The position numbers and the translations under genes were made by a program. The notes under the pieces were generated by a model, which had not been told where the DNA came from, did not search any database, and was given only the letters and a program-made list of their open reading frames with translations. From the NCBI GenBank assembly GCA_964573615.1, contig CAZNKD010000035.1, positions 6,394-70,393 of the forward strand: a DNA stretch of 64,000 nt, written 5' to 3'. Below, in pieces: positions 39,588 to 61,163 of the stretch (its first letter is position 1; each line of letters opens with the position of its first letter). The DNA comes from an uncultured Desulfobacterales bacterium (GTDB taxonomy: Bacteria; Desulfobacterota; Dissulfuribacteria; Dissulfuribacterales; QOAL01).

Positions 39588-40205
39588 ATGGGAAAGATCA
39601 AGAGAGCAATCCTGAGCGTTACGGACAAGAGCGGCATACAGGAGTTTGCAAAGAGGCTTCACGAGATGGGCGTTGAGCTGGTCTCTACCGGTGGTACCGC
39701 GCGCACCATCAGGGATGCTGGCGTGCCGGTGAAGGACGTGTCCGAGATCACCGGTTTCCCAGAGATGATGGATGGCAGGGTAAAGACGCTCCATCCCAAG
39801 GTGCATGGCGGCATACTGGCCATCAGGGACAACGAGGAGCATGTAAAACAGATGGAGGAGCACGGCATCCCCTCCATAGACATGGTGGTGGTGAACCTCT
39901 ATGCCTTTGAAAAGACCGTGGCCAAGGAGGGTGTCACCCTGGCCGAGGCCATCGAGAATATCGATATCGGCGGTCCCACCATGCTCAGATCCTCCGCCAA
40001 GAACTTCCGCTATGTAACAGTGGTGGTAGATCCGGCAGACTATGACAGGATCCTGAAGGAGATGGAGGAGAACGACGGGGCCACGACTCTGAAGACCAGG
40101 TTCGAGCTGGCAAGGAAGGTATTTGCCACCACGGCCGCCTACGATACGGCCATAACGAACTATCTGAAGAAGATCGATCCCGACAAGGACCCCTACTTCA
40201 GCTGA
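39588..40205 (+). CDS. stand-alone IMP cyclohydrolase domain (PurH N-terminal MGS-like domain only)
   Basis: 205 aa with [37 protein letters not shown] and [10 protein letters not shown]. It ends where the AICAR transformylase domain of full-length PurH would begin, and a strong terminator follows. Confidence 0.85.
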
Positions 40206-40238: not shown

Positions 40239-40265
40239 AAAAGGGGGGATTACCCCCCTTTTTTT
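40239..40265. terminator. bidirectional rho-independent terminator
   Basis: AAAA-GGGGGG-ATTA-CCCCCC-TTTTTTT between convergent genes. It overlaps the stop codon of the minus-strand gene. Confidence 0.85.
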
Positions 40266-41178
40266 ATGCCCCTACAAGGGCCAGAATCTTTCGAAAGGGT
40301 ATTTTTAGCCGTGCCACCACGTTATGGGTATGGATGCTCTCTATGCTGGTCGACTCGATCCTGACCGTGGCATCGGGATCTATCCTGTCTGAAAGGCGCC
40401 TTCCTGCAGAAGCTGCAAGCTCCCTTACAACATCCTCCACAAACTGGGGCCTTCTGTGCGCCTTTAGCACCAGTTCTGCCTCGTCTGGCCGTTTCAGAAG
40501 GCCCTGTATGATATGGAGACTCTCCTCTGCTGGCGTGAGGAGCTGTTCGAAATCGAGCCTGTCCAGCCGGTCGTTCACGAAAAATCTGGTGATGGTCCGC
40601 TGTGAATGGGTGGGCAGGGGCAGGGGGCTTCCTGCCCCTTCCAAAAGTGTGTCGTGATAGGCCTGGGTGCATGGGCAGGCGGTCATGTGCTCGATCTCGA
40701 TCCCGAGCTCCATCTGTTCATCTCCCTCCCCGCGGATCAGGTGCAGGAAGACCTTCAGTGACTCCACGGACTCCTTTTGGCTCACAGGTGCCCGTCTGGC
40801 AATGGGGATGAGGCCTGAAAGGCTGATCTCGATCTTCCCGCCCCGCTGGCGGCTCAATATGCGAGAGGCCAGGGTGCGGGCAAAGGCCTTGAGATCGGGA
40901 TAGGACTCGTGATAGGAGCGGCTTACGGCCTCCTCGATCCTGGACATATGAATGCCCCTGAACTCGGCAGGAAGACAGAGATATATGGATGCATCGAAGG
41001 CGAGCCTTCCCTGGGGCAGGTCCACCCAGAGCATGTTAGACTCGATCCCCACCGTTTGGATGGGAAGAGAAAGGGCCGGTGGCTGCTCAGGCACATCGAT
41101 GCCCTCTTTCAGGACCCTTTGATGCTCCTCTATCCCTATCTCCGTGCCTGCTCCTGGAGGGCCGTTTCTCTTCTTCAT
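40264..41178 (-). CDS. GTP cyclohydrolase, FolE2/MptA (type IB) family
   Basis: ATG 41178 gives 304 aa and forms an ATGA overlap with the upstream stop. Family motifs RGIHMSRI, HMTACPCT, PTHSQRT, LLKRPDEAELV, RPQFVEDVVRE, ESIHTHNVVA. Confidence 0.85.
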   Translation of the reverse strand: MKKRNGPPGAGTEIGIEEHQRVLKEGIDVPEQPPALSLPIQTVGIESNMLWVDLPQGRLAFDASIYLCLPAEFRGIHMSRIEEAVSRSYHESYPDLKAFARTLASRILSRQRGGKIEISLSGLIPIARRAPVSQKESVESLKVFLHLIRGEGDEQMELGIEIEHMTACPCTQAYHDTLLEGAGSPLPLPTHSQRTITRFFVNDRLDRLDFEQLLTPAEESLHIIQGLLKRPDEAELVLKAHRRPQFVEDVVRELAASAGRRLSDRIDPDATVRIESTSIESIHTHNVVARLKIPFRKILALVGA

Positions 41179-42017
41179 AGCAGTCTTTTCTCCTTGAGGG
41201 CACAGAACCAGTCCTGCACGCCCTGCCACTTGCCGGCCTCTTTCGTGATGAGTGCCATGTGGTCATCCAGCCAGGAAAGGAGCCCCTGTCTCAGGGCCGC
41301 CTCCTCCTCAGAAAGCCCTCTGGCCAGCTCCACAATCCTGCCCACGAGCCCCTTCAGGGCATCGGGGCTGCACCTGGTACTACAGAGGCTGCCTGCATGG
41401 AGCCTTCTTGTGGTGGCGATCTTTGGCACAAGCTCTATCGGGGACCTGGATGCCAGGGCGATGAAAAAGAGCCAGTCCTCTCCCAACGAAAGCCCTCTGC
41501 CATGATCCGGAAAGCCACCCGCCTCCAGAAATGTCTCTTTTCGGATGGCAAATGAAGAGGGCATGATATAGCACCACTTGAAGAGCAGCTCCAGGGCCCT
41601 TCCCTCCTCGATCTGCCGGCACAGCTCGTGGTCCGGCACCTCGAAGAGCGTGCCCGTGGCCATGTCTATGTTCTGGGTGATGCAAAAGGCGGCTTCCGCC
41701 CTGTCCAGGGCCTTTGAGAGGATGTCTGCATGGTCCTGGTGCCAGAGGTCGTCGGAGTCAAGGAACATGACGACCTCTCCACCGGCGGCCTCGACTCCCG
41801 CATTCCTGGCCGGGCCAGGGCCAAGGCCGCCGGTAGTTACGAGTGTGACCTCAGGAAAGAGGGCCCGGATCTCCTGGTCCGTGCCATCCCTCGAGCCATC
41901 ATCGACCACGATGATCTCCAGGGGGTCTGCCATCTCCTGGGCAAGCACGCTTCTTACCGCCTGGACGGTCATCTCCTTCCGGTCCCTGGTGGGTATGATG
42001 CAGGATATGGTAGGCAT
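41175..42017 (-). CDS. family 2 glycosyltransferase
   Basis: ATG 42017 gives 280 aa. GT-A motifs SCIIPTRDR, IIVVDDGSRDGT, MFLDSDDLW. Confidence 0.85.
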   Translation of the reverse strand: MPTISCIIPTRDRKEMTVQAVRSVLAQEMADPLEIIVVDDGSRDGTDQEIRALFPEVTLVTTGGLGPGPARNAGVEAAGGEVVMFLDSDDLWHQDHADILSKALDRAEAAFCITQNIDMATGTLFEVPDHELCRQIEEGRALELLFKWCYIMPSSFAIRKETFLEAGGFPDHGRGLSLGEDWLFFIALASRSPIELVPKIATTRRLHAGSLCSTRCSPDALKGLVGRIVELARGLSEEEAALRQGLLSWLDDHMALITKEAGKWQGVQDWFCALKEKRLL

Positions 42018-42034
42018 GGCGGTCACTTCGGTCC

Positions 42035-42793
42035 CTATGCGTTCGACTCTTGTCTGCCAGGCGGAAAGACCTCGGCGGCATCCCTGTGCCGTCCTTCCAG
42101 GATATGCTCTATGTAGGCCCTGACCCTGGGGATCATGTGATCGAGATAAGCCCCTATCTCCTTTTCCGTGGCACTGGTCTTGGTCTGGCAGAAGAGGCAT
42201 TTTCTCTCTCCTCCGCCTGTGGAGGGCAGGCCAAAGTCCTCCAGCAGGTGCCTTACCACATCCTCTGATGAGAATTCATCATAGACCGGAAACGCCGTGG
42301 TGACACCGAAGCCCTCTGAAAGGGCGGCCACCTTCTCCATGAAGACCCGGGTCTGTTCTGGATAGAATGACTGGCGCCTGGCATAGCCGGCAAGGATAAG
42401 GGGGACATAGTTCTGAACAGAGTATATGATGGCCTTGGTATGCATGGCCAGCTTGCAAGCCACACAGACCAGGTTCTTGCCACCGAACATTGGCATCAGC
42501 TCCTCGTACATGTCTAGCCACAGGCCCTGAAACAGCCGGCCGCAATCGAGCTCCACCAGATGGCTCTCCGGAAACTCCTCTGGCCTGGTGCTCTGGCCTC
42601 GGAGGATCCTTTCAGCCACCTGAAGCCTGGTGGCAGGGAAGTCCGGGAAGCGGCCCATGCCGTTCAGCATATGGAGGAGATGGACCCGTTTGGGCCTCGG
42701 GATCGCCGGGAAGTTTCCAAGGGCGGAAAGGGCATAGAGGGCCAGAGAGTCGCGTCCGCCTGAGTAGAGTATCGCCAAGTCCTGTCTGTCCAT
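42035..42793 (-). CDS. PP-loop (adenine nucleotide alpha-hydrolase superfamily) ATPase, specific function unknown
   Basis: 252 aa. N-terminal PP-loop AILYSGGRDSLAL plus two CxxC pairs (CVAC, CLFC). RBS AGGAG lies within the end of the upstream gene. Confidence 0.7.
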   Translation of the reverse strand: MDRQDLAILYSGGRDSLALYALSALGNFPAIPRPKRVHLLHMLNGMGRFPDFPATRLQVAERILRGQSTRPEEFPESHLVELDCGRLFQGLWLDMYEELMPMFGGKNLVCVACKLAMHTKAIIYSVQNYVPLILAGYARRQSFYPEQTRVFMEKVAALSEGFGVTTAFPVYDEFSSEDVVRHLLEDFGLPSTGGGERKCLFCQTKTSATEKEIGAYLDHMIPRVRAYIEHILEGRHRDAAEVFPPGRQESNA

Positions 42794-42802
42794 TTTTTCT
42801 GT

Positions 42803-43462
42803 TCACTCCTGCTCCTGCATGCCGTAGTCCACGGCATAACGGATAAATATCTCGCCAGACTCCAGGCTGACCTTGCACTCAAGTGGCCTGAGTCCTATGG
42901 AGGGCCTGCCAAGGGGTTCAGGCCCTTCGACCAGGCTGGAGACAGAAGAGGCACCGATTATCTCAGGGCATATAGTGACGAGGAGCTCATGGACCACCGC
43001 CTGGCTAAGGGCCTCGTAGTTCAGGGCGGATCCCCCCTCGATCAGCAGGCTCTCAACACCCCGTTCCGAAAGATGCTCCATGACCTCTCTGAGGTCGAGC
43101 CGTCCCGGCCCCATGTAACCTATCGGTATGATCTCTGCCCGTTGGCCCAGGGCCTGTTCAAGTGCCGGGCCTGCCTGCCTGGATGTGAATATCAAGGGCC
43201 TTGGCCCGCGGCTGAAAAGGGGCTGGTCCTCTGTCGGAATCCGGCCCGAGGCGGTTATTACCGCCCTTGTCCGCCCATCCAGTGTCCTGCCGCCTGGCCC
43301 AAGCATCTGGACCGGCCCCTGGCGCAGGGTGCCTGCCCCGATGAGGCTTGCATCAGTGTCTTCCCTCATCCGCTCCAGAAAGGCCCTGTCAACGGCACTT
43401 CCTTTGAAACCTTGGCCAATGCGGCCGCACACGGATGCGGCAGCAATTATGGATACCTTCAT
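42803..43462 (-). CDS. stand-alone RibD C-terminal-type (DHFR-fold) NAD(P)H reductase
   Basis: ATG 43462 gives 219 aa. Motifs SVCGRIG, DASLIGAGTLR, RAVITASGRIP, SLLIEGGSALN, VHELLVTICPEIIG. No deaminase domain. Confidence 0.8.
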   Translation of the reverse strand: MKVSIIAAASVCGRIGQGFKGSAVDRAFLERMREDTDASLIGAGTLRQGPVQMLGPGGRTLDGRTRAVITASGRIPTEDQPLFSRGPRPLIFTSRQAGPALEQALGQRAEIIPIGYMGPGRLDLREVMEHLSERGVESLLIEGGSALNYEALSQAVVHELLVTICPEIIGASSVSSLVEGPEPLGRPSIGLRPLECKVSLESGEIFIRYAVDYGMQEQE

Positions 43463-43713
43463 TACTATTACAGATACCACCTTGGCCTGAAAAAATACAG
43501 CGGCCCGATGATGTCGGGCCCCATTTGGCAAAGCGCACTTGTCAACTTCTGCCTTTGATGTTACAAAGACGGCCACTTGAAGCAGTGAAATATACACGTC
43601 CCACAGGCCTTGTGGTGCTGTCGCAATACGGGCGGCAGTAAATGGGGTCTATTTGCGCAGAGTCTCTGTGCTGAGGGACGGAAGAAAAACCACAAAAGAC
43701 GGAGGTAGCAGAA

Positions 43714-44565
43714 GTGGCTTATGTAACGATGAAGCAGTTGCTGGAGGCCGGTGTCCACTTCGGTCATCAGACCAGGCGCTGGAATCCCAAGATGAAACCC
43801 TACATCTTCGGGGCCAGGAATGGGATCTACATCATAGATCTCCAGAAGACCGTGAAGATGTTCAAGGTGGCCTATGAGTTCGTCATGGAGACTGCGGCCA
43901 ATGGAGGCGAGGTCCTTTTCGTAGGTACCAAGAAGCAGGCCCAGGAGTCCATCTACGAAGAGGCCACGAGGGCCGGCATGCCCTATGTCAACCACCGCTG
44001 GCTCGGCGGAATGCTCACCAATTACAAGACCATCAAGAAGAGTATCGACAAGCTCAAGAAGCTTGAGGCCATGTTCGAGGATGGCACCATCGAGCGTTTT
44101 CCAAAAAAGGAGATACTCAAGATGGAGAGGCTGCGCCAGAAACTGGAGCGCAACCTCGGCGGCATCAAGGACATGAATGGCCTGCCGGCAGCCCTCTATG
44201 TGGTGGATGCCAAGTATGAGCAGATCGCGGTCAAGGAGGCCAACAAGCTCGGTATCCCCGTTGTGGCCATAGTGGATACCAACTGCGATCCCGATGGAAT
44301 AGACTACATCATCCCAGGAAACGATGACGCCATCAGGGCCATCAGGCTGCTGACCTCTCTGCTGGCAAACGCCTGCATAAAGGGCAGGGAGCTTTACGAG
44401 GAGGCCAAGCAGGCCGAGAGCGACAAGGAGCTGGAGGAGGCCAGCGCCGAGCAGGCAGAGAAGGAGGCCACGGAAGAGGCAGCAGAAGAGGCTGCCGAGG
44501 CCCCGCCTGTCCAGGCTGAGGCTGTATCAGAGCCGGCCAAGGAGGGCGCTGAAAGCGCTGTATAA
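43714..44565 (+). CDS. rpsB: 30S ribosomal protein S2
   Basis: 283 aa with a GTG start after GGAGG. Contains [15 protein letters not shown] and an acidic C-terminal tail. Confidence 0.96.
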
Positions 44566-54160: not shown

Positions 54161-55414
54161 ATGCTCGAACTGAAGAGGCTTAGACGCCGGGTGAAAGAGG
54201 CTGTTGAGAGGGCGGTCCCGGATGCCCGCATAGACTTTTGTCTCACCTGTGGTCTCTGCGTCAGCGGCTGTCCCGCCTCTGGTCTTGAAGGCCTCGATCC
54301 CAGGAAATTCCTGCGTCTTCTGGTGCTCGGCCAGGATCAGGAGATACTGGAGACCAACTGGATATACTCCTGTACCATGTGTCAGCGCTGCCGCTATGCA
54401 TGCCCCATGGGCATAGACATAGGCAGGATCGTCTATGAGCTGAGGGGTATGCGCCCCAGGGAGCAGCGCCCACCCAATCTCCAGCGCTCTTGTGATCTTC
54501 AGAAGGCCTCAAACAGCACCGGTATCCCCAACGAGGATTTCGTATGGGTGGTCGGTGACGTGCTGGAGGAGGTGCGCCAGAACGAGCCAGAGTGGAAGGA
54601 TCTCCAGGCGCCCATAGACAAAAAGGGGGCAAGATACTATCTGAACCAGAATGCCAAGGAGCCCACGGTAGAGCCGGAGGAGATGGTGCCGCTCTGGAAG
54701 ATCCTCCATGCGGCCGGTATAGACTGGACCTATTCTTCCAAGTGGTGGGACGGGGCCAACTACTGCCTGTTTACGGGGGACCCCGAAGACTGGGAATACA
54801 CGGTCAGGAAGCAGGCCGAGACAGTGGATGCCCTTGGATGCCGATATTACATAAACACGGAGTGAGGCCACATGTTCTACGCGACCCTGGAGGGGTTGCG
54901 AAGGTTCAAGATCCCGCACAACTTCGAATTCGTTAGCATAATCACCCTCTATGCCGAGTGGATCAGACAGGGGAGACTCAAGGTCTCATCGAGCTGGAAC
55001 AGCCAGGGACTCAAGTTCACGGTCCAAGACCCTTGCAAGCTGGTCCGCCAGGGCCTGGGAGACTCTGTGGCCGAGGACCTAAGATTCGTGATCAAGAAGG
55101 TGGTAGGAGAGGAGAACTTCATAGACGTCTGGCCAAGACTCAGCAACAACTACTGTTGCGGAGGCGGTGGAGGGGCCCTCCAGGCAGGATTCGTGGAGAA
55201 CAGGAGGCGCTATGGCAGACGCAAGTTCGACCAGCTTGCGGCCACCGGCGCCGATGTGGTGATCACCCCGTGCCACAACTGCCATACCCAGGTGGCTGAC
55301 ATCTGTGAGTACTATGGCGGTGGCTGGAAGACCACCCACCTTTGGAACTGGCTGGAAAAGGCCCTGGTCCTCGATGGTGGCGGGCCGGAAGGGGAGGGGC
55401 ACAGAGATGGCTGA
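54161..55414 (+). CDS. HdrD/DsrK/GlpC-like Fe-S protein (2x[4Fe-4S] + two CCG domains), probable selenoprotein with in-frame UGA at 54863-54865
   Basis: ORFs 54161-54865 and 54872-55414 are in the same frame, separated only by TGA-GGC-CAC. The UGA falls where the first CCG domain should have its terminal Cys (YINTE-U-GHMFYATL, compared with VITPCHNCHTQV in the second domain). Also present: CLTCGLCVSGCP, CTMCQRCRYACP and NYCCGGGGG. A hairpin lies 15 nt downstream. Confidence 0.65.
54880..54900 (+). promoter_or_regulatory. candidate bacterial SECIS hairpin
   Basis: 8-bp stem CGCGACCC/GGGTTGCG (one G-U pair) with loop UGGAG. The stem starts 15 nt after the UGA. Confidence 0.45.
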
Positions 55415-58400
55415 TCTGTCCGGCTCTGTCCTGGTTGTAGGCGGCGGGATTTCCGGCGTCCAGGCAGCTCTCGATCTCGCAGACAGCGGATTCTATGTCC
55501 ACCTGGTGGAGCGCGGCCCTGCCATCGGAGGGGCCATGAGCCAGCTGGACAAGACCTTTCCCACCAATGACTGCTCTGCATGCATCTTGTCACCGAAGCT
55601 GGTGGAATGCGGCCGGCATCTCAACATAAATCTTCTGACCCTCTCCCAGGTGGAGGCACTGGAGGGAGGGCCTGGCCGGTTCAAGGTGCGTGTGCGCCAG
55701 ATGCCCCGCTATGTGGACACAGACAAGTGCATAGCCTGCGGGGCCTGTGCGGAAAAATGCCCCAAGAAGGTGCCAAGCCAGTTCGATCTCGGCCTTGGAA
55801 CCAGAAAGGCCATCTATCTCCAGTATCCCCAGGCGGTTCCCCTTAAATATGCCATCGACCCGGAACAGTGCATCTGGCTCAGAAAGCCGGGTCGATGCGG
55901 TGCCTGTGTAAAGGCGTGTCCTTCCGGGGCCATAAACTTCGATGACAAGCAAAGGGTACACGATCTCACGGTGGGCAGCGTGATACTTGCCCCGGGATTC
56001 AGGCCCTTTGATCCGTCAGGGCTGGATTTTCTGGGCTACAAGAGCCTTGACAATGTCATCACATCCATGGAGTTCGAGCGTATCCTGAGCCCTTCGGGCC
56101 CCTTCAAGGGGCACATGGTGCGGCCCTCTGATGGCAAAGAGCCAAGGAGGATCGCCTGGCTCCAGTGTGTCGGATCCCGGGACATAAACAGGGCCTGCCA
56201 CGGATACTGCTCCTCCGTATGCTGCATGTATGCAGTAAAGCAGGCCTTCATTGCAAGGGAGCATGCCAAGGGCCAGGGGCTCGACACAGAGATCTTCTTC
56301 ATGGATATGCGTACCCACGGCAAGGGGTTCGAGTCCTATTACCAGCGGGCCAGACAGGAGGGCATACTCTTTCGGCGTGCCAGGGTGCACACCATCCTGC
56401 CGGACAGGGAGTCCGAGGGAGGTCTTGTGCTCACCTGGGGCGATGAAGAGGGCAAGATACATGAATCCCGCTTCGATATGGTGGTCCTGTCCGTGGGCCT
56501 GGAGCCGGATCCTGAGGTCATGGCGCTCTCTGAGCGGCTGGGTGTGGAGCTCGATCCGGACATGTTCGTCCTTACAGAAGGCTTCAGCCCTGTGGCCACC
56601 TCAAGGCCGGGAATTTTCGTATGCGGGGCGGCCTCTGAGCCAAAGGATATCCCCCAGTCCGTCATGGAGGCCAGCGCTGCAGCCCTTGAGGCAGAGAGGC
56701 TTCTGTCTCCGGCGAGATGGAGTGAGACCAAAACACCGGAATATCCCCCTGAGAGGGACGTGTTTTCCGAACCGCCCAGGATCGGGGTCTTTGTCTGTTC
56801 CTGCGGCATCAATATCGGCTCTGTGGTGGATGTAGAGCGGGTGTGTGACTATGCAAAGGGGCTGCCCGGTGTGGTCTTTGCCCAGACAAATCTCTTCACA
56901 TGCTCCCAGGACACCATAAACCAGATGGCCGAAACCGTGAGAAGGCAGAGACTGAACAGGGTCGTGGTGGCTTCCTGCACACCGAGGACCCACGAGCCCC
57001 TGTTCCAGGAGACGCTGCGCGAGGCGGGGATAAACAAGTATCTCTTCGAGATGGCCAATATCAGGGATCAGGACTCATGGGTGCATCAGTCAGATCCCGA
57101 GGCTGCCACCAGGAAGGCCATGGATCTCGTGCGCATGGCTGTTGCCAAGGTTCGGGGAGACCAGCCCCTGGCCTACAACACCATCCAGGTGATAAAGGAG
57201 GCCCTTGTGGTGGGGGGCGGGGTGGCTGGCATGACTGCCGCACTCAGTCTGGCAGATCAGGGCTTTCCCGTGACCCTCGTAGAGAGGGAGGCCCGCCTCG
57301 GGGGCTGGGCCAGGAGCCTTTTTCATACAAGCAGCAGGGAGCCGGTGCAGAAAGAGCTGGCAAATCTCATCTCAAAGGTGGAAGCGCATAGCCGGATCTC
57401 AGTAAAGACGGGCGTTACGGTCAAGGATGTGTCTGGCTCCGTGGGCCGTTTTTCAACCTCACTTTCAGACGGCAGCTCGGTGGAGCACGGGGTGGCCATA
57501 GTTGCGGTCGGTGCCGAGCCCTGGCTGCCCGAGCCAGGCTCACCCCACAGCTATCTCTATGGAGTCCACCCAGGTGTACGAACCCTGCTGGAGGTGGATC
57601 AGGCCCTGATATCGGGCGAAGGCCTGCCGGAGGAGCTCAAACAGGCGGTCTTCATACACTGTGTGGGCTCTCGCATCCCGGAGCGGCCCTACTGCTCAAG
57701 GGTGTGCTGTAGCCACGCCATAGAGCAGGCCCTTGCCCTCAAGGATCGGAATCCGGATCTTGAGATATTCATGCTCTATCGGGATATCCGTACCTATGGA
57801 AGACGCGAATATCTCTATCAGGAGGCCAGAAGGCGCGGCATCATCTTCATCAGATATGACCTTGAGGAGCCTCCCCAGGCGGCCATGGCCCAGGGAGAAG
57901 CCGGCCAGGAACTGGTTGTACGTGTGAAGGACCACGTCCTTGGCAGGCCTGTGGAGCTAAGGCCGGAGCTGCTGGTGCTCGCCACTGCAATCACGCCCCG
58001 CAGGGATTCCGGGGCCCTTGCCCAGTTCTTCAAGTGTGCCACCGGATCAGACGGTTTCCTGCTCGAGGCCCATATGAAGCTCAGGCCAGTGGATTTTGCC
58101 ACAGACGGGGTCTTTCTTGCCGGACTGTGCCACTATCCAAAGCCCATAGAGGAGACCATCGCCCAGGCCAAGGCCGCGGCCTCCAGGGCAGGGCTCATCC
58201 TCTCCAAGGACCATGTCCCGGCAGAGAGCATAACCGCAGAGGTGAACCGGGCCAAATGTACAGGGTGCGGGGTGTGTGAAAGGGTGTGCGCCTATCATGC
58301 GGTTGCCGTAGATCCGGCATCGGGCAGTGCAGTGGTGGACAGTGCCATGTGCAAGGGATGCGGGGCCTGTGTGGCAGGGTGCAGGTCTGATGCGATCACC

Positions 58401-58469
58401 CTCAAGAACATGGGCAACGAGCAGATAATGGCCGAGGTGGAGGCTGTTGTGGACGAATGGATCCTGTAG
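55407..58469 (+). CDS. large HdrA-like flavoprotein/Fe-S protein with two FAD-binding modules
   Basis: ATG 55407 overlaps the upstream stop (ATGGCTGA) and gives 1020 aa. Two Rossmann motifs (VLVVGGGISGVQAALDLADSG and ALVVGGGVAGMTAALSLADQG). Also HdrA NDCSACILSPK, CVGSRD twice, and four ferredoxin CxxCxxCxxxCP motifs. Confidence 0.88.
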   Translation: MADLSGSVLVVGGGISGVQAALDLADSGFYVHLVERGPAIGGAMSQLDKTFPTNDCSACILSPKLVECGRHLNINLLTLSQVEALEGGPGRFKVRVRQMPRYVDTDKCIACGACAEKCPKKVPSQFDLGLGTRKAIYLQYPQAVPLKYAIDPEQCIWLRKPGRCGACVKACPSGAINFDDKQRVHDLTVGSVILAPGFRPFDPSGLDFLGYKSLDNVITSMEFERILSPSGPFKGHMVRPSDGKEPRRIAWLQCVGSRDINRACHGYCSSVCCMYAVKQAFIAREHAKGQGLDTEIFFMDMRTHGKGFESYYQRARQEGILFRRARVHTILPDRESEGGLVLTWGDEEGKIHESRFDMVVLSVGLEPDPEVMALSERLGVELDPDMFVLTEGFSPVATSRPGIFVCGAASEPKDIPQSVMEASAAALEAERLLSPARWSETKTPEYPPERDVFSEPPRIGVFVCSCGINIGSVVDVERVCDYAKGLPGVVFAQTNLFTCSQDTINQMAETVRRQRLNRVVVASCTPRTHEPLFQETLREAGINKYLFEMANIRDQDSWVHQSDPEAATRKAMDLVRMAVAKVRGDQPLAYNTIQVIKEALVVGGGVAGMTAALSLADQGFPVTLVEREARLGGWARSLFHTSSREPVQKELANLISKVEAHSRISVKTGVTVKDVSGSVGRFSTSLSDGSSVEHGVAIVAVGAEPWLPEPGSPHSYLYGVHPGVRTLLEVDQALISGEGLPEELKQAVFIHCVGSRIPERPYCSRVCCSHAIEQALALKDRNPDLEIFMLYRDIRTYGRREYLYQEARRRGIIFIRYDLEEPPQAAMAQGEAGQELVVRVKDHVLGRPVELRPELLVLATAITPRRDSGALAQFFKCATGSDGFLLEAHMKLRPVDFATDGVFLAGLCHYPKPIEETIAQAKAAASRAGLILSKDHVPAESITAEVNRAKCTGCGVCERVCAYHAVAVDPASGSAVVDSAMCKGCGACVAGCRSDAITLKNMGNEQIMAEVEAVVDEWIL

Positions 58470-58495
58470 ACTCTTTTCAAACGGACTGATAAGAA

Positions 58496-58987
58496 ATGGG
58501 AGCTGAAAGGGAAAATTCCGGGACAGGCGGACAGTGGGAGCCCAGGATAGTGGCCTTCCTGTGCAACTGGTGCAGTTATGCCGGTGCAGATCTGGCAGGT
58601 GTGAGCAGGCTCCAATATCCGCCCTATATCAGGATTGTCCGGGTCCCCTGTTCCGGCAGGGTGAGCGCCCAGCTCATCCTGGATGCCTTCAGGGCCGGTG
58701 CAGATGGTGTATGGGTCTCTGGTTGTCATCCGGGTGATTGTCACTATATCAGTGGCAACCTGTATGCCAGGCGCCGGTTCGTGCTTCTGAGGCGGTTTCT
58801 GGAGTTCGTGGGGATTGAGCCTGGAAGACTCCATTTTTCTTGGATTTCTGCATCCGAAGGAGAGAAGTTTGCCCAGACGGCGGCCAGGGTTGCCGAAGAG
58901 GTAAAGGCCCTTGGCCCCTCCAGGCGACTTGTCAAGAGATTCGATCCGCAGGGGAGGGTGATCCCGGCGGAACAGGTCACAGGATAG
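58496..58987 (+). CDS. MvhD/FlxD-like [2Fe-2S] electron-transfer subunit
   Basis: 163 aa with IVAFLCNWCSYAGADLAG...VPCSGRV...GADGVWVSGCHPGDCHY. Confidence 0.88.
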   Translation: MGAERENSGTGGQWEPRIVAFLCNWCSYAGADLAGVSRLQYPPYIRIVRVPCSGRVSAQLILDAFRAGADGVWVSGCHPGDCHYISGNLYARRRFVLLRRFLEFVGIEPGRLHFSWISASEGEKFAQTAARVAEEVKALGPSRRLVKRFDPQGRVIPAEQVTG

Positions 58988-58995
58988 GGGAGCTG

Positions 58996-60117
58996 ATGGC
59001 AGGTGCTGAGAGGAAAAAGGGCCGGGACGTGAACCGGGAGATCACCCAGGAGCTCAGAAAGAGGGCGGCGGCTCTCCTGGCCTCTGGCGATATAGCGGCC
59101 TTTGTGGGCTTCAGGATCGGCAGCCATCCCATGATCATGCGTCCCTTTGTGGCAAGGAGCCCGGAGGAGGCGGAGAGGCTCGTCTGGAACAGCTTCTGTG
59201 TCATAAATCTGGCCAACTATCTGCCTGGACTCCTCAGGTCCCTGGAGCCGCCGAGGCGGCCGGGAGATCCGCCGCCGGAAGGCCCTCTGCCAAAGGTTGG
59301 GGTCGTGGCAACAGGGTGCTGGTCCAGGAACATGGTTGTCCAGATCCAGGAGAACCAGATTCAGAGGCAGCGGGTGGTGATAATCGGGATCCCCAGCCGC
59401 GGCATGATCGACCGCAGGAAGGTGGAGCTTGCGGCAGAAGGGGCCGAGATAACCGGGGTTCAGGAAGGTCAGCACAAGCTCAAGGTCTCCACCAGCCGGG
59501 GAGAGATCGAGCTGAATCGCTGGGATCTCGTCAGGGACAACTGCCTTACGTGTCAGCGGCCGGATCCAGTGATCTATGACGAGATGATCGGTCAACCCCA
59601 GTGGGAGAGAAAGGTTTCAGAGCCCTTCAGACAGGTGGAGGAGATAGAGGCCCTTGATCCGGATGAGCGATGGGCGTGGTTCACACAGGAGATCTCATCC
59701 TGCATCCGCTGCTATGCCTGCAGGAATGCCTGCCCCCTCTGCTACTGCCCTACCTGTTTCGTGGACGACTCCCGCCCGCAATGGGTGGGAAAGAGCAGAG
59801 AGCCTGTGGATACCGCCCTCTTTCATATCCTGAGGGCCTATCACTGTGCCGGCCGTTGCACGGACTGCGGTACCTGTGAAAGTGTCTGCCCCATGGGGAT
59901 CAAGATGAGGCTCCTTACGAGGAAACTCCAGAAAGACGTGAAGGAGCTCTATGGATTCGAGCCTGGCCTGAGCCTGGAAGAGCCCCTTCCCTTGTCTACA
60001 TACAGGCCGGATGATCCGGAGCCCTATTTCGACATAAGGCCCGTTGACGAATCCCCGAAGCCGGTCTCTGGCGGCGGAGGGGCCGGAGAAGGAGATATGG
60101 GGAGGCAAAAAGGATGA
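58996..60117 (+). CDS. Fe-S subunit, AsrA/HydB/FlxC-like
   Basis: ATG 58996 gives 373 aa. Motifs CIRCYACRNACPLCYCPTCF and CTDCGTCESVCPMGI. Confidence 0.7.
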   Translation: MAGAERKKGRDVNREITQELRKRAAALLASGDIAAFVGFRIGSHPMIMRPFVARSPEEAERLVWNSFCVINLANYLPGLLRSLEPPRRPGDPPPEGPLPKVGVVATGCWSRNMVVQIQENQIQRQRVVIIGIPSRGMIDRRKVELAAEGAEITGVQEGQHKLKVSTSRGEIELNRWDLVRDNCLTCQRPDPVIYDEMIGQPQWERKVSEPFRQVEEIEALDPDERWAWFTQEISSCIRCYACRNACPLCYCPTCFVDDSRPQWVGKSREPVDTALFHILRAYHCAGRCTDCGTCESVCPMGIKMRLLTRKLQKDVKELYGFEPGLSLEEPLPLSTYRPDDPEPYFDIRPVDESPKPVSGGGGAGEGDMGRQKG

Positions 60118-61163
60118 ACAGCCAGTCCTCCCGGTACACCAAGGTGGATGAAGGGGCCTTGCGCACTTGGCTGTCGCGTCTTGGAGGGCAGACCAGGGTC
60201 TTTGCTCCAAAGAGCGGGCCCAAAGGGATCGTTGACTGGGCGGAACTGGATGATGGGGGGCTTCCCGATCTGGACCTTGGCCTTCCCTTGAACTCCATCA
60301 AGGTCTTCTATTTTCCCCAGCCGGAGATACTCTTTACCTTCAACGCAAGGCCGGGCCAGCCCGACTCTTTCAGGCTCAGAGAGCCGGAAGAAGCGGGTGG
60401 GGAGATTGTGCTGGCAGGGGTGAGGCCGTGCGATGCAAGGAGCATCACCCTAAACAGCCTGCCATATGCCGAGGACCCCTACTTTCAGGCCCGGACAGAC
60501 AGGCTTTATGTCATAGGTTTTCCCTGTATGGAGGGCTGTTCCACCTGTTTCTGCTCATGGGTCGGAGGGGGGCCGGGCAGTACGGATGGGATGGATGTGG
60601 CGGTCTGGCAGATGCCGGGAGGCCACTTCGTTATAGAGGCCGTTACCGAAAAGGGCGGCAAGCTGATGGAAGGGCTCCATGGGGCTGGCCCTGTGGCCGA
60701 GCCCTCGGAAGAGGAGCTTCTGCACATAGAACAGTGGCGCAAGAAGGGCCTAGGCCAGGCGGGGGAAGATCCATCCCTTTCCATGCGGCACAAGGATCTC
60801 ATGGCCTGTTACCAGGCGCCCTTCTGGCAGCAGGTGGCCGATTGCTGCATCAACTGTGGCACCTGTACATTCCTGTGCCCCACCTGCTACTGTTTCGACA
60901 TACAGGATGAAAAGGCCCGTGGCATCGGCCGCAGGATACGTTACTGGGACTCCTGCATGTTCCCGCTGTTCACTCAGCACGCCTCTGGCCACAATCCCAG
61001 GGGAGAGAAGATAAAGAGGGTGAGAAACCGCTTCATGCACAAATTCAAATACTTTGTCGACCGGTTCGGGCCATTGTCCTGTGTAGGCTGTGGCCGCTGC
61101 ATCAGGCAGTGCCCGGTGAACATAGATGTCAGAGAGGTCCTGCGCGACCTGCTTGCCCTGTGA
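60114..61163 (+). CDS. Fe-S subunit, AsrA/HydB/FlxB-like
   Basis: 349 aa with an ATGA overlap. Motifs CINCGTCTFLCPTCYCFD and CVGCGRCIRQCPVNID. Confidence 0.7.
   Translation: MNSQSSRYTKVDEGALRTWLSRLGGQTRVFAPKSGPKGIVDWAELDDGGLPDLDLGLPLNSIKVFYFPQPEILFTFNARPGQPDSFRLREPEEAGGEIVLAGVRPCDARSITLNSLPYAEDPYFQARTDRLYVIGFPCMEGCSTCFCSWVGGGPGSTDGMDVAVWQMPGGHFVIEAVTEKGGKLMEGLHGAGPVAEPSEEELLHIEQWRKKGLGQAGEDPSLSMRHKDLMACYQAPFWQQVADCCINCGTCTFLCPTCYCFDIQDEKARGIGRRIRYWDSCMFPLFTQHASGHNPRGEKIKRVRNRFMHKFKYFVDRFGPLSCVGCGRCIRQCPVNIDVREVLRDLLAL

Follow-up and report, generated by a model that had tools for sequence, protein, structure and literature searches.

What is made by four genes that lie packed end to end on the minus strand of a 64,000-nt stretch of contig CAZNKD010000035.1 (the whole stretch is called the window in the following), which stems from an uncultured Desulfobacterales bacterium? 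In the order of transcription, they encode a reductase of the RibD_C fold, a PP-loop protein, a family 2 glycosyltransferase (GT2) and a GTP cyclohydrolase related to FolE2 and MptA. A first-pass annotation of the sequence had proposed that the four proteins build a GTP-derived glycoconjugate. This is still the best reading of the locus with regard to synteny and domain content, while the chemistry that had been proposed for the PP-loop protein and for the reductase had to be revised. Very probably, the genes represent a dedicated, undescribed GTP-based pathway that is distinct from the synthesis of folate, riboflavin and queuosine. More tentatively, we propose that its product is a glycosylated, reduced pterin with a thiolated C4, a structure that we regard as plausible rather than probable. 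The genes, their junctions and the terminator are as follows (genes according to the listing of open reading frames, ORFs, and the sequence):

43462-42803, minus strand: RibD_C gene, 219 aa, first gene of the operon
42793-42035, minus strand: PP-loop gene, 252 aa
42017-41175, minus strand: GT2 gene, 280 aa
41178-40264, minus strand: FolE2-like gene, 304 aa, last gene of the operon
42810-42794, minus strand: RibD_C/PP-loop junction, with AGGAG (42810-42806) within the end of the RibD_C gene, the stop codon, a 9-nt gap (42802-42794) and the ATG of the PP-loop gene
42034-42018, minus strand: PP-loop/GT2 junction, a 17-nt gap
41178-41175, minus strand: GT2/FolE2-like junction, ATGA, in which the start of the FolE2-like gene overlaps the stop of the GT2 gene
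40243-40258, both strands: bidirectional intrinsic terminator, GGGGGGTAATCCCCCC between an A-run and a T-run

The four genes are one real operon. The end-to-end arrangement on the minus strand, both gaps and the ATGA overlap were all recovered from the ORFs and the sequence, as was the strong bidirectional terminator that had been noted at the end of the unit: it was called in both orientations, and its RNA fold has an energy of -24.6 kcal/mol (z = -3.55). The terminator is common to the operon and a convergent gene with an IMP-cyclohydrolase domain (39588-40205, plus strand). The products of 219, 252 and 304 aa are exact entries of an 85,460-bp public contig, and thus the choices of start codons agree with independent gene calls. 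The public call for the GT2 gene starts with the GTG at 42026, which results in a protein of 283 aa. The family assignments of the first-pass annotation were also correct, based on Pfam matches for RibD_C, GT2 and FolE2/MptA and on the SGGRDS motif for the PP-loop protein.

The distribution of the operon was analyzed with a scan that comprised one genome per species and 185,579 species, from which 80 loci were fetched for relatives of the PP-loop protein. Such a relative is present in just 153 of these species genomes. Among the carriers with complete genomes are Desulfurivibrio alkaliphilus AHT2 (CP001940), Thermodesulfobacteriota bacterium B35, Thiovibrio sp. JS02 and Desulforegula conservatrix. 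Together with contig look-ups, the scan yielded a set of 83 non-redundant loci from Desulfobulbales, Dissulfuribacterales/SEEP-SRB2, Thermodesulfobacteria and one Desulfobacterales genome, in which the four genes were located by tblastn, with the window proteins as queries. The RibD_C gene is located directly upstream of the PP-loop gene at 78 of the 83 loci, and all four genes are contiguous at 43. At 12 further loci the two pairs are separated by a few kb and the adjacency of the GT2 and FolE2 genes is kept; indeed, these two genes are adjacent wherever both occur in the set. The flanking genes are wholly different in Dissulfuribacter, in Thermodesulfobacteria, in a metagenome-assembled genome (MAG) labelled "Firmicutes" and in Desulforegula, and therefore the association of the four genes is not just an inherited neighbourhood. 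The presence of the same arrangement in differing contexts in dozens of genomes is beyond chance, and the question whether the four genes are syntenic in related genomes, which the first-pass annotation had posed, can be answered in the affirmative.

Clustering of about 1,100 neighbouring ORFs revealed no fifth universally conserved gene. Recurrent neighbours are lineage-specific, i.e., a gene for a ParB-like protein at 29 loci, a gene for a CCA-adding enzyme at 17 loci, and sensor kinase genes, and for that reason none of them was counted as part of the system. Neither QueD nor QueE is encoded in the window or at the other loci, and folB/K/P, ribA/H/E, ribB and cofG/H were not found beside the four genes. 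The proposal that the context is not the canonical one of folate, queuosine or riboflavin synthesis is supported by this. PADLOC gave no match for any of the four proteins, and a defence system was rejected on this basis.

The PP-loop protein contains the motifs SGGRDS (residues 11-16) and GYxxxQxxYPEQT (136-148) as well as two cysteine pairs, C110-x2-C113 and C199-x2-C202. The window protein has no Pfam or NCBIfam match, and 17 orthologues searched at E <= 10 gave only scattered sub-threshold noise. Several hundred homologues were found; the orthologues, which are 62-72% identical across Desulfobulbales, Dissulfuribacterales and Thermodesulfobacteria, are all annotated as "hypothetical". Among proteins of solved structure, only YcfA of Erwinia amylovora is related by sequence (E = 4.4e-6 with phmmer; 1.2e-11 with a profile of the 17 orthologues). 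The same relative was retrieved by structure: with an AlphaFold2 (AF2) model (predicted local distance difference test score, pLDDT, 86.5; predicted template modelling score, pTM, 0.88), the best Foldseek matches were the YcfA chains 9kq6, 9kq7 and 9kq9 with template modelling (TM) scores of 0.74-0.90 and E-values of about 1e-12. They were followed, at a level seven orders of magnitude weaker, by the [4Fe-4S] thiolases NcsA and TtuA and then by MnmA, LarE and QueC.

YcfA activates the amide carbonyl at C6 of GTP by adenylation and attaches L-cysteine, and the partner protein YcfC cleaves the adduct to the thioamide, which yields 6-thioguanine (PMC12494993). Mutagenesis has assigned seven YcfA residues to the binding of ATP/Mg and of the guanine ring, among them E134, which is the general base (PMC12494993). 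All seven positions have counterparts in the operon protein, and six of them are invariant in the 17 orthologues:

YcfA D19: D15 of the PP-loop protein, invariant
YcfA Q129: Q141, invariant
YcfA F132: Y144, Tyr and Phe alternate, so that the aromatic character alone is kept
YcfA E134 (general base): E146, invariant
YcfA Q135: Q147, invariant
YcfA K169: R181, invariant
YcfA E183: E196, invariant

In spite of this common PP-loop fold with its SGGxDS motif and the shared ATP/Mg and guanine site, the two proteins are only about 20-22% identical, and they differ in the part that would deliver sulfur. The L-Cys-binding residues of YcfA are not kept, the position of R18 being occupied by Thr, Arg or Ser and that of Y128 by Arg or Lys. 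Instead, the operon family has a CxxC...C triad where YcfA has Leu, Glu and Ser. All aligned orthologues have C110, C113 and C199, and the third cysteine follows the CxxC motif after 86 residues. C202 is kept in about 90% of the orthologues; it is a Ser in orthologue P0122 and in Desulforegula and a Gly or Ala in most of the wider family. In addition, the operon does not encode a pyridoxal phosphate (PLP)-dependent C-S lyase of the YcfC type, and such a gene is not recurrent at the 83 loci; the partners are RibD_C, GT2 and FolE2-like proteins, and the distribution is clade-wide, in contrast to the sporadic occurrence of YcfA-YcfC. Because the triad is kept in 80 of 100 full-length representatives of the wider family (clustered at 50% identity), while the YcfA pattern occurs in about 7-10 of them, YcfA seems to be a derived branch without the cysteines in a family of the Fe-S type that is largely uncharacterised.

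The same triad, a CxxC motif with a third cysteine 86-88 residues on, characterizes the PP-loop thiolases TtuA, TtcA and NcsA. In NcsA, Cys142, Cys145 and Cys233 hold a [4Fe-4S] cluster, the fourth iron of which binds the hydrosulfide for the attack on the adenylated base. The structural similarity to this group is limited (TM about 0.45, E about 2e-5, root mean square deviation > 11 Å), and the operon protein with its 252 aa is devoid of the zinc-finger and tRNA-binding extensions of these enzymes and has kept residues for the binding of a guanine-type ring; its substrate is probably a small molecule and not a tRNA. LarE, which is involved in the synthesis of the nickel-pincer nucleotide, is another PP-loop enzyme among the fold matches that transfers sulfur onto an adenylated carbonyl of a cofactor precursor. 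However, its substrates are nicotinate-derived carboxylates and the structural match is weak, so that the analogy would be one of logic alone.

In more distant relatives, both archaeal and bacterial, which are 27-35% identical to the PP-loop protein, the gene adjoins or is fused with one for a TudS-type [4Fe-4S] thiouracil desulfidase. The two proteins may form a system for thio-nucleobases that has not been described. Near the four-gene cluster, a TudS-like gene was found in Desulforegula alone; it is 60% identical to the archaeal one and is located two genes downstream of the cluster. These observations stem from L088:3183-4312, L091:824-2578, L092:1352-2520 and L095:10550-10966 and from the fusion protein P0146.

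Taken together, the likeness to YcfA, the Cys triad of the Fe-S type and the TudS neighbours suggest sulfur chemistry on a guanine-type ring, and the residue pattern points to an exchange of oxygen for sulfur, i.e., the formation of a thioamide, rather than to nitrile or amide chemistry. The first-pass annotation had named QueC as its example of a PP-loop enzyme. A QueC-like reading was abandoned, because the Pfam results are noise, because the window protein does not match the QueC family PF06508 (one of the 17 orthologues does so at E = 0.18), and because QueD and QueE are missing from the window and the other loci; a YcfA-type enzyme with a Cys triad has taken its place.

FolE2/MptA enzymes open GTP to products of the dihydroneopterin type, and FolE2 makes 7,8-dihydroneopterin triphosphate, which is used for folate and queuosine. 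The operon protein is a full-length member of this superfamily: the Pfam profile GCHY-1 (PF02649) matches residues 28-289 over positions 3-260 of 260 with an E-value of 1.7e-48. The motifs HMSR, CPC, HxQR, RPDE, FVED and ESIHxH are all kept in comparison to NE1163 (2r5r) and NGO0387 (3d2o), and they are invariant in 26 orthologues. This includes the residues corresponding to Cys147, His159 and Glu201 of Neisseria FolE2, which we take to be the metal ligands, and Glu216, presumably the guanine anchor, and the numbering of the alignment agrees with this assignment. Because all catalytic motifs of FolE2 are intact, it is most likely that the protein performs the complete type I reaction, including ring opening and ring closure. 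The product might be either the triphosphate or a cyclic phosphate of the MptA type. The protein nevertheless differs from both characterised groups, with 131.2 bits for the FolE2 model (NF010200; equivalog cut-off 215) and 141.2 bits for the MptA model (TIGR00294; cut-off 220). All 26 orthologues match the three models and likewise stay below the cut-offs, with a lowest E-value of 9.8e-48 for MptA and a best E-value of 5e-38 for FolE2. Further differences to FolE2/MptA are a longer insert between the CPC and the HxQR motifs, the GT2 neighbour, and the restriction to about 150 species.

The assignment of the RibD_C protein is less straightforward. The fold is clear (Pfam RibD_C, E = 1.7e-20), and the NADPH motifs G-x-G-T (GAGT) and E-G-G (IEGG) are present and conserved. 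The scores for all NCBIfam equivalogs are far below the respective cut-offs (TIGR01508, 67.9 vs. 186.45; TIGR00227, 65.9 vs. 150.15; NF010664, 66.6 vs. 226), the best match being the archaeal-type model TIGR01508 with E = 6.9e-19. Relatives in the PDB are 6p8c, 2azn, Rv2671 (4xrb) and 5xux, and motifs were compared between 69 orthologues and partial sequences of these four proteins. A study of yeast RIB7 has revealed that Thr79, Asp83, Glu180 and Gly182 are required for activity. Thr, Glu and Gly of this set are present in the window protein, while its loop GTLRQGPVQM is devoid of the Asp. The position of this Asp (D83 in ScRIB7, D200 in EcRibD) is mostly occupied by Gly in the 69 orthologues, and Glu, Ala and other residues also occur. 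Moreover, D-R is found at residues 25-26, GTxR replaces GTVL, and ITxSG replaces VVVDS. These three motifs are shared with Rv2671, and D-R, GTxR and (I/V)TxSG appear to be diagnostic for Rv2671-like proteins. Rv2671 is a protein of the RibD_C fold that has been solved with antifolates (4xrb) and is regarded as an analogue of dihydrofolate reductase (DHFR). In contrast to Rv2671 and to Rib7/RibG, which have the fold and the NADPH motifs in common with it, the operon protein is linked to a PP-loop gene and has a nearly invariant Cys12 in place of the Asp of S-x-D-G. The first-pass annotation had left the choice between the reduction of ribosylamino-pyrimidines and of dihydropterins. The fold fits this pair of reactions, but the catalytic Asp of the pyrimidine type is missing and the motifs resemble those of Rv2671. 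We therefore read the protein as a putative dihydropterin-type reductase. The evidence is mixed, and because of this, a pyrimidine reductase is retained as a rival and is weighed below.

The remaining protein is a GT2 enzyme (Pfam Glycos_transf_2, E = 2.4e-26). The motifs DDGS-D (DDGSRDGT in the window protein), DSDD and GEDW are invariant in the orthologue alignment. According to Pfam and to an AF2 model that was built from an alignment of database homologues and has a pLDDT of 93.2, it is a soluble protein made up of one GT-A domain and, at the C-terminus, a conserved helical region; a membrane-associated domain was not detected. Its best NCBIfam equivalog score is 63 at a cut-off of 370. 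The concern that the PP-loop protein or the GT2 might belong to well-characterised unrelated families has thus been allayed, as NCBIfam matches are far below the cut-offs or missing and PADLOC was empty. The best match in the PDB by sequence is AvpGT (9jma/9jn3; E = 7e-15, residues 4-202, 24-25% identity), a GT2 enzyme that transfers glucose to the 3'-O of nucleosides, among them the GTP-derived tubercidin. Like NucGT and ScaGT, it is a soluble GT2 enzyme whose acceptor is a ribose hydroxyl in a small molecule derived from GTP, and all three come from the secondary metabolism of Streptomyces. By structure, however, AvpGT (TM 0.65-0.68) is merely one among generic GT2 matches of similar score, which include the polysaccharide enzymes K4CP, SpsA and TarS as well as TarP. 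It therefore provides only a precedent that small molecules with ribose-type acceptors are used within the family.

From these observations we infer the substrates, the order of steps, the sulfur donor and the product as follows. The FolE2/MptA-like cyclohydrolase with its intact catalytic motifs would convert GTP to 7,8-dihydroneopterin triphosphate or the 2',3'-cyclic phosphate. Next, the GT2 enzyme would glycosylate a hydroxyl group on the side chain that stems from the ribose, with a nucleotide-sugar as the donor. As suggested by its motifs, the Rv2671-like RibD_C protein could carry out the NADPH-dependent reduction that takes the ring from the dihydro- to the tetrahydropterin level. Finally, the PP-loop enzyme would adenylate the amide carbonyl at C4 in the 2-amino-4-oxopyrimidine ring, in the same way as YcfA does at C6 of GTP, and oxygen would be exchanged for sulfur via a [4Fe-4S] cluster on C110, C113 and C199; the sulfur would probably come from sulfide, and a thioamide would result. 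Since the conserved gene pairs are GT2-FolE2 and RibD_C-PP-loop, we suggest that the pathway consists of two modules, one with the cyclohydrolase and the GT2 that builds and decorates the pterin, and one with the reductase and the PP-loop protein that reduces the ring and exchanges the oxygen at C4.

The concept of a sugar on the side chain of a reduced pterin is known from natural pterin glycosides, i.e., tepidopterin, limipterin, cyanobacterial biopterin glucoside and solfapterin. The latter is a neopterin 3'-glycoside from Sulfolobus, according to a reference cited in PMC3546692. The pathways to these compounds need 6-pyruvoyltetrahydropterin synthase (PTPS) and sepiapterin reductase, neither of which is present here, and none of these pathways uses a PP-loop enzyme. 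In our literature searches, neither a description of this cluster nor a function for the Cys-triad family of YcfA-like proteins was found. The predicted chemistry would be unprecedented for pterins. At the same time, because all four proteins belong to known superfamilies, the operon is a variant of the pathways for GTP-derived cofactors and metabolites and not something categorically new.

Several observations weigh against a glycosylated thiopterin as the product. The literature search turned up no natural 4-thiopterin. The Cys triad could also bind zinc, in which case the nucleophile might be ammonia. Characterised pteridine glycosyltransferases of the CtPGT/BGluT type, such as CtPGT itself, are GT1/AviGT4-like, while the operon enzyme is a GT2, so that glycosylation of a pterin by it, if it occurs, would use a scaffold unlike that of the known enzymes. 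The association of the genes is also not complete. RibD_C, PP-loop and FolE2 genes are found without the GT2 gene at 4 of the 83 loci, and at 14 loci, mostly from relatives of Desulfurivibrio, neither a GT2 nor a FolE2 gene is present within 3-10 kb downstream; the rest of the loci are truncated. The absence of the GT2 gene from four clusters would fit with glycosylation as a tailoring step, which it may be. Finally, the RibD_C protein is by score closest to archaeal reductases of 2,5-diamino-6-ribosylamino-4(3H)-pyrimidinone phosphate (DAROPP), with 60.8 bits (1.4e-15) for 6p8c in comparison to 45.6 for Rv2671, and about three quarters of the 69 orthologues have an Asp one residue later in the catalytic loop. 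Due to these two findings a role as a ribosylamino-pyrimidine reductase has to be reckoned with.

Such a role is the core of one rival explanation, according to which the cyclohydrolase releases the ring-opened DAROPP, RibD_C reduces its ribosyl to a ribityl moiety as archaeal Rib7 does, the PP-loop enzyme acts on the C4 carbonyl of the pyrimidinone, and the GT2 glycosylates the ribityl chain, so that an analogue of a riboflavin or deazaflavin-like precursor is formed. The pyrimidinone ring would offer the same chemical target to a YcfA-like enzyme, archaeal-type DAROPP reductases are the best matches of the RibD_C protein (6.9e-19 for TIGR01508, 1.4e-15 for 6p8c), the NADPH and E-G-G motifs are kept, and most orthologues have one Asp in the loop. 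However, this loop is devoid of Asp in the window protein and D83 of ScRIB7 is required for activity; VVVDS is replaced by ITxSG as in Rv2671, and the score of 67.9 contrasts with a cut-off of 186. In addition, the FolE2-like protein has kept all motifs of complete type I cyclohydrolases, and ribH, ribE, ribB and cofG/H were not found nearby. We regard a pyrimidine branch as improbable. A different rival keeps the pathway from GTP to a pterin and exchanges the last reaction, in that a QueC-like zinc site would introduce nitrogen from ammonia or an amine and yield a 2,4-diaminopteridine-type product. The amination of adenylated carbonyls is common among PP-loop enzymes, e.g., GMP synthase, NAD synthetase and QueC, the latter is found among the fold matches (E = 1.1e-4), and the window protein has four cysteines in two CxxC pairs. 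The fourth of them, C202, is not conserved though, with a Ser in P0122 and Desulforegula and a Gly or Ala in most of the family. The three-Cys CxxC...C pattern with its spacing of 86 residues is a signature of Fe-S thiolases, the closest relative YcfA makes a thioamide, TudS-type desulfidases lie beside relatives, and a glutaminase partner is missing. The likelihood of a nitrogen-bearing product is small in our estimation.

Could the four genes be housekeeping genes that are merely adjacent? FolE2 would then serve folate and queuosine synthesis, RibD_C would substitute for dihydrofolate reductase, and the GT2 and the PP-loop protein would serve other ends, in the synthesis of the cell envelope or the thiolation of tRNA. 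The location of the operon among the core genes eno, thrC, rpsB, tsf, pyrH and frr is in agreement with this idea, as are the DHFR activity of which Rv2671-type proteins are capable according to 4xrb and related PDB entries, and the JGI label of the GT2, "involved in cell wall biosynthesis." It is at odds with the synteny of the four genes across orders with unrelated flanks and with their translational coupling. Furthermore, the FolE2-like clade lies under the FolE2 and MptA equivalog cut-offs and tracks the PP-loop gene on the same contigs, the PP-loop protein combines conserved guanine-binding residues of YcfA with the absence of tRNA-binding and zinc-finger domains, and the GT2 is below every cell-wall equivalog cut-off. 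We thus consider mere adjacency to be highly improbable. Hardly any likelihood is left for an antimetabolite cluster, in which a thiolated toxin of the guanine or pterin type would be glycosylated for self-protection or export, comparable to 6-thioguanine and glucosylated tubercidin. It is true that YcfA makes the antimetabolite 6-thioguanine from GTP and that toxic nucleosides are glucosylated by GT2 enzymes of the AvpGT type. But the PP-loop protein shows vertical, clade-wide conservation (55-72% identity over several orders), the operon is set in core-gene neighbourhoods, and genes for transporters, regulators, Nudix proteins or a PLP lyase (YcfC) are not recurrent nearby.

The C4-thiolated, glycosylated pterin thus remains our preferred, though tentative, product. 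New GTP-derived cofactors are rarely found, and those that are known, i.e., folate, methanopterin, flavins, molybdopterin and deazapurines, have a central place in metabolism. The combination of a type I GTP cyclohydrolase with a relative of an enzyme that forms a thioamide from the guanine carbonyl has not been described before. A thiolated pterin, if it is indeed made, would represent a new class among the natural pterins and would provide a function for the large unannotated family of PP-loop proteins with a Cys triad. It would also suggest that sulfate reducers and sulfur disproportionators, among them relatives of SEEP-SRB2, have a cofactor chemistry specific to their lineage. The SEEP-SRB2 bacteria are syntrophic partners of methane oxidisers. 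It might even be speculated that a C4-thio, glycosylated compound of the tetrahydroneopterin type is a clade-wide cofactor of sulfur-cycling Thermodesulfobacteriota, e.g., as a soft S,N ligand for metals or as a carrier in redox reactions, and that its sulfur is derived from sulfide via a new Fe-S branch of the YcfA family, a possibility that we regard as rather doubtful.

Some of the lineage-specific neighbours deserve a short description. The ParB-like protein has about 320 aa and a weak match to ParB_N, and its gene is divergently oriented upstream of the RibD_C gene (L001:6174-7133 and 28 further loci); all 29 loci belong to Desulfurivibrionaceae and relatives. The gene for the CCA-adding enzyme (PolyA_pol and HD domains) starts 5-60 nt past the FolE2-like gene or overlaps it at 17 loci of Desulfobulbales (e.g., L032:12456-13931). 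HD domains include cyclic phosphodiesterases such as MptB. The gene is probably the housekeeping cca in a lineage-specific neighbourhood. In the Desulfurivibrio relative ML8_D, a separated GT2-FolE2 pair is located elsewhere on the contig. It is followed by an overlapping gene for a ferritin-like protein, by sufC and sufBD, and by a gene for a sulfur oxygenase reductase (SOR; L093:11070-16219 for the whole group). In the MAG labelled "Firmicutes," the cluster is followed by a gene for a protein of 246 aa (L004:3408-4148), for which precomputed Pfam matches to MJ1433_N and MJ1433_C exist.

In the window, the operon is flanked by thrC, eno and a tRNA gene on one side and by rpsB, tsf, pyrH, frr, uppS, cdsA and dxr on the other; the genes on the rpsB side are transcribed divergently from it. 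Two features were noted upstream of the RibD_C gene:

43463-43713, minus strand: 5' leader/promoter region, divergent from rpsB, with TTGACA at 43546-43541
43520-43502, minus strand: GC-rich hairpin with a T-run inside the leader, about 40 nt upstream of the RibD_C start

The hairpin looks like an attenuator. It is the least conserved part of the otherwise 93% identical leader of the close relative locus L096 and is absent from the other loci. Rfam gave no relevant match for the whole window at the gathering threshold or for 43300-43800 at E <= 10, and thus no known riboswitch was found upstream of the operon. A scan of 67 upstream regions for k-mers and hairpins revealed no conserved element, and a riboswitch or a conserved leader element was rejected on account of these empty searches.

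Two further loci in the window are worth mentioning. The convergent gene at 39588-40205 (plus strand) encodes a stand-alone protein of 205 aa that consists of an MGS domain and just the first ~60 residues of AICARFT_IMPCHas, i.e., a PurH fragment with the IMP cyclohydrolase only, and the same arrangement is found at L096. A run of genes rich in Cys motifs is located at 54161-61163 (plus strand). It includes an ORF of 1054 aa, and, as judged by eye from the translations, the neighbouring genes resemble those for heterodisulfide reductases or flavin oxidoreductases.

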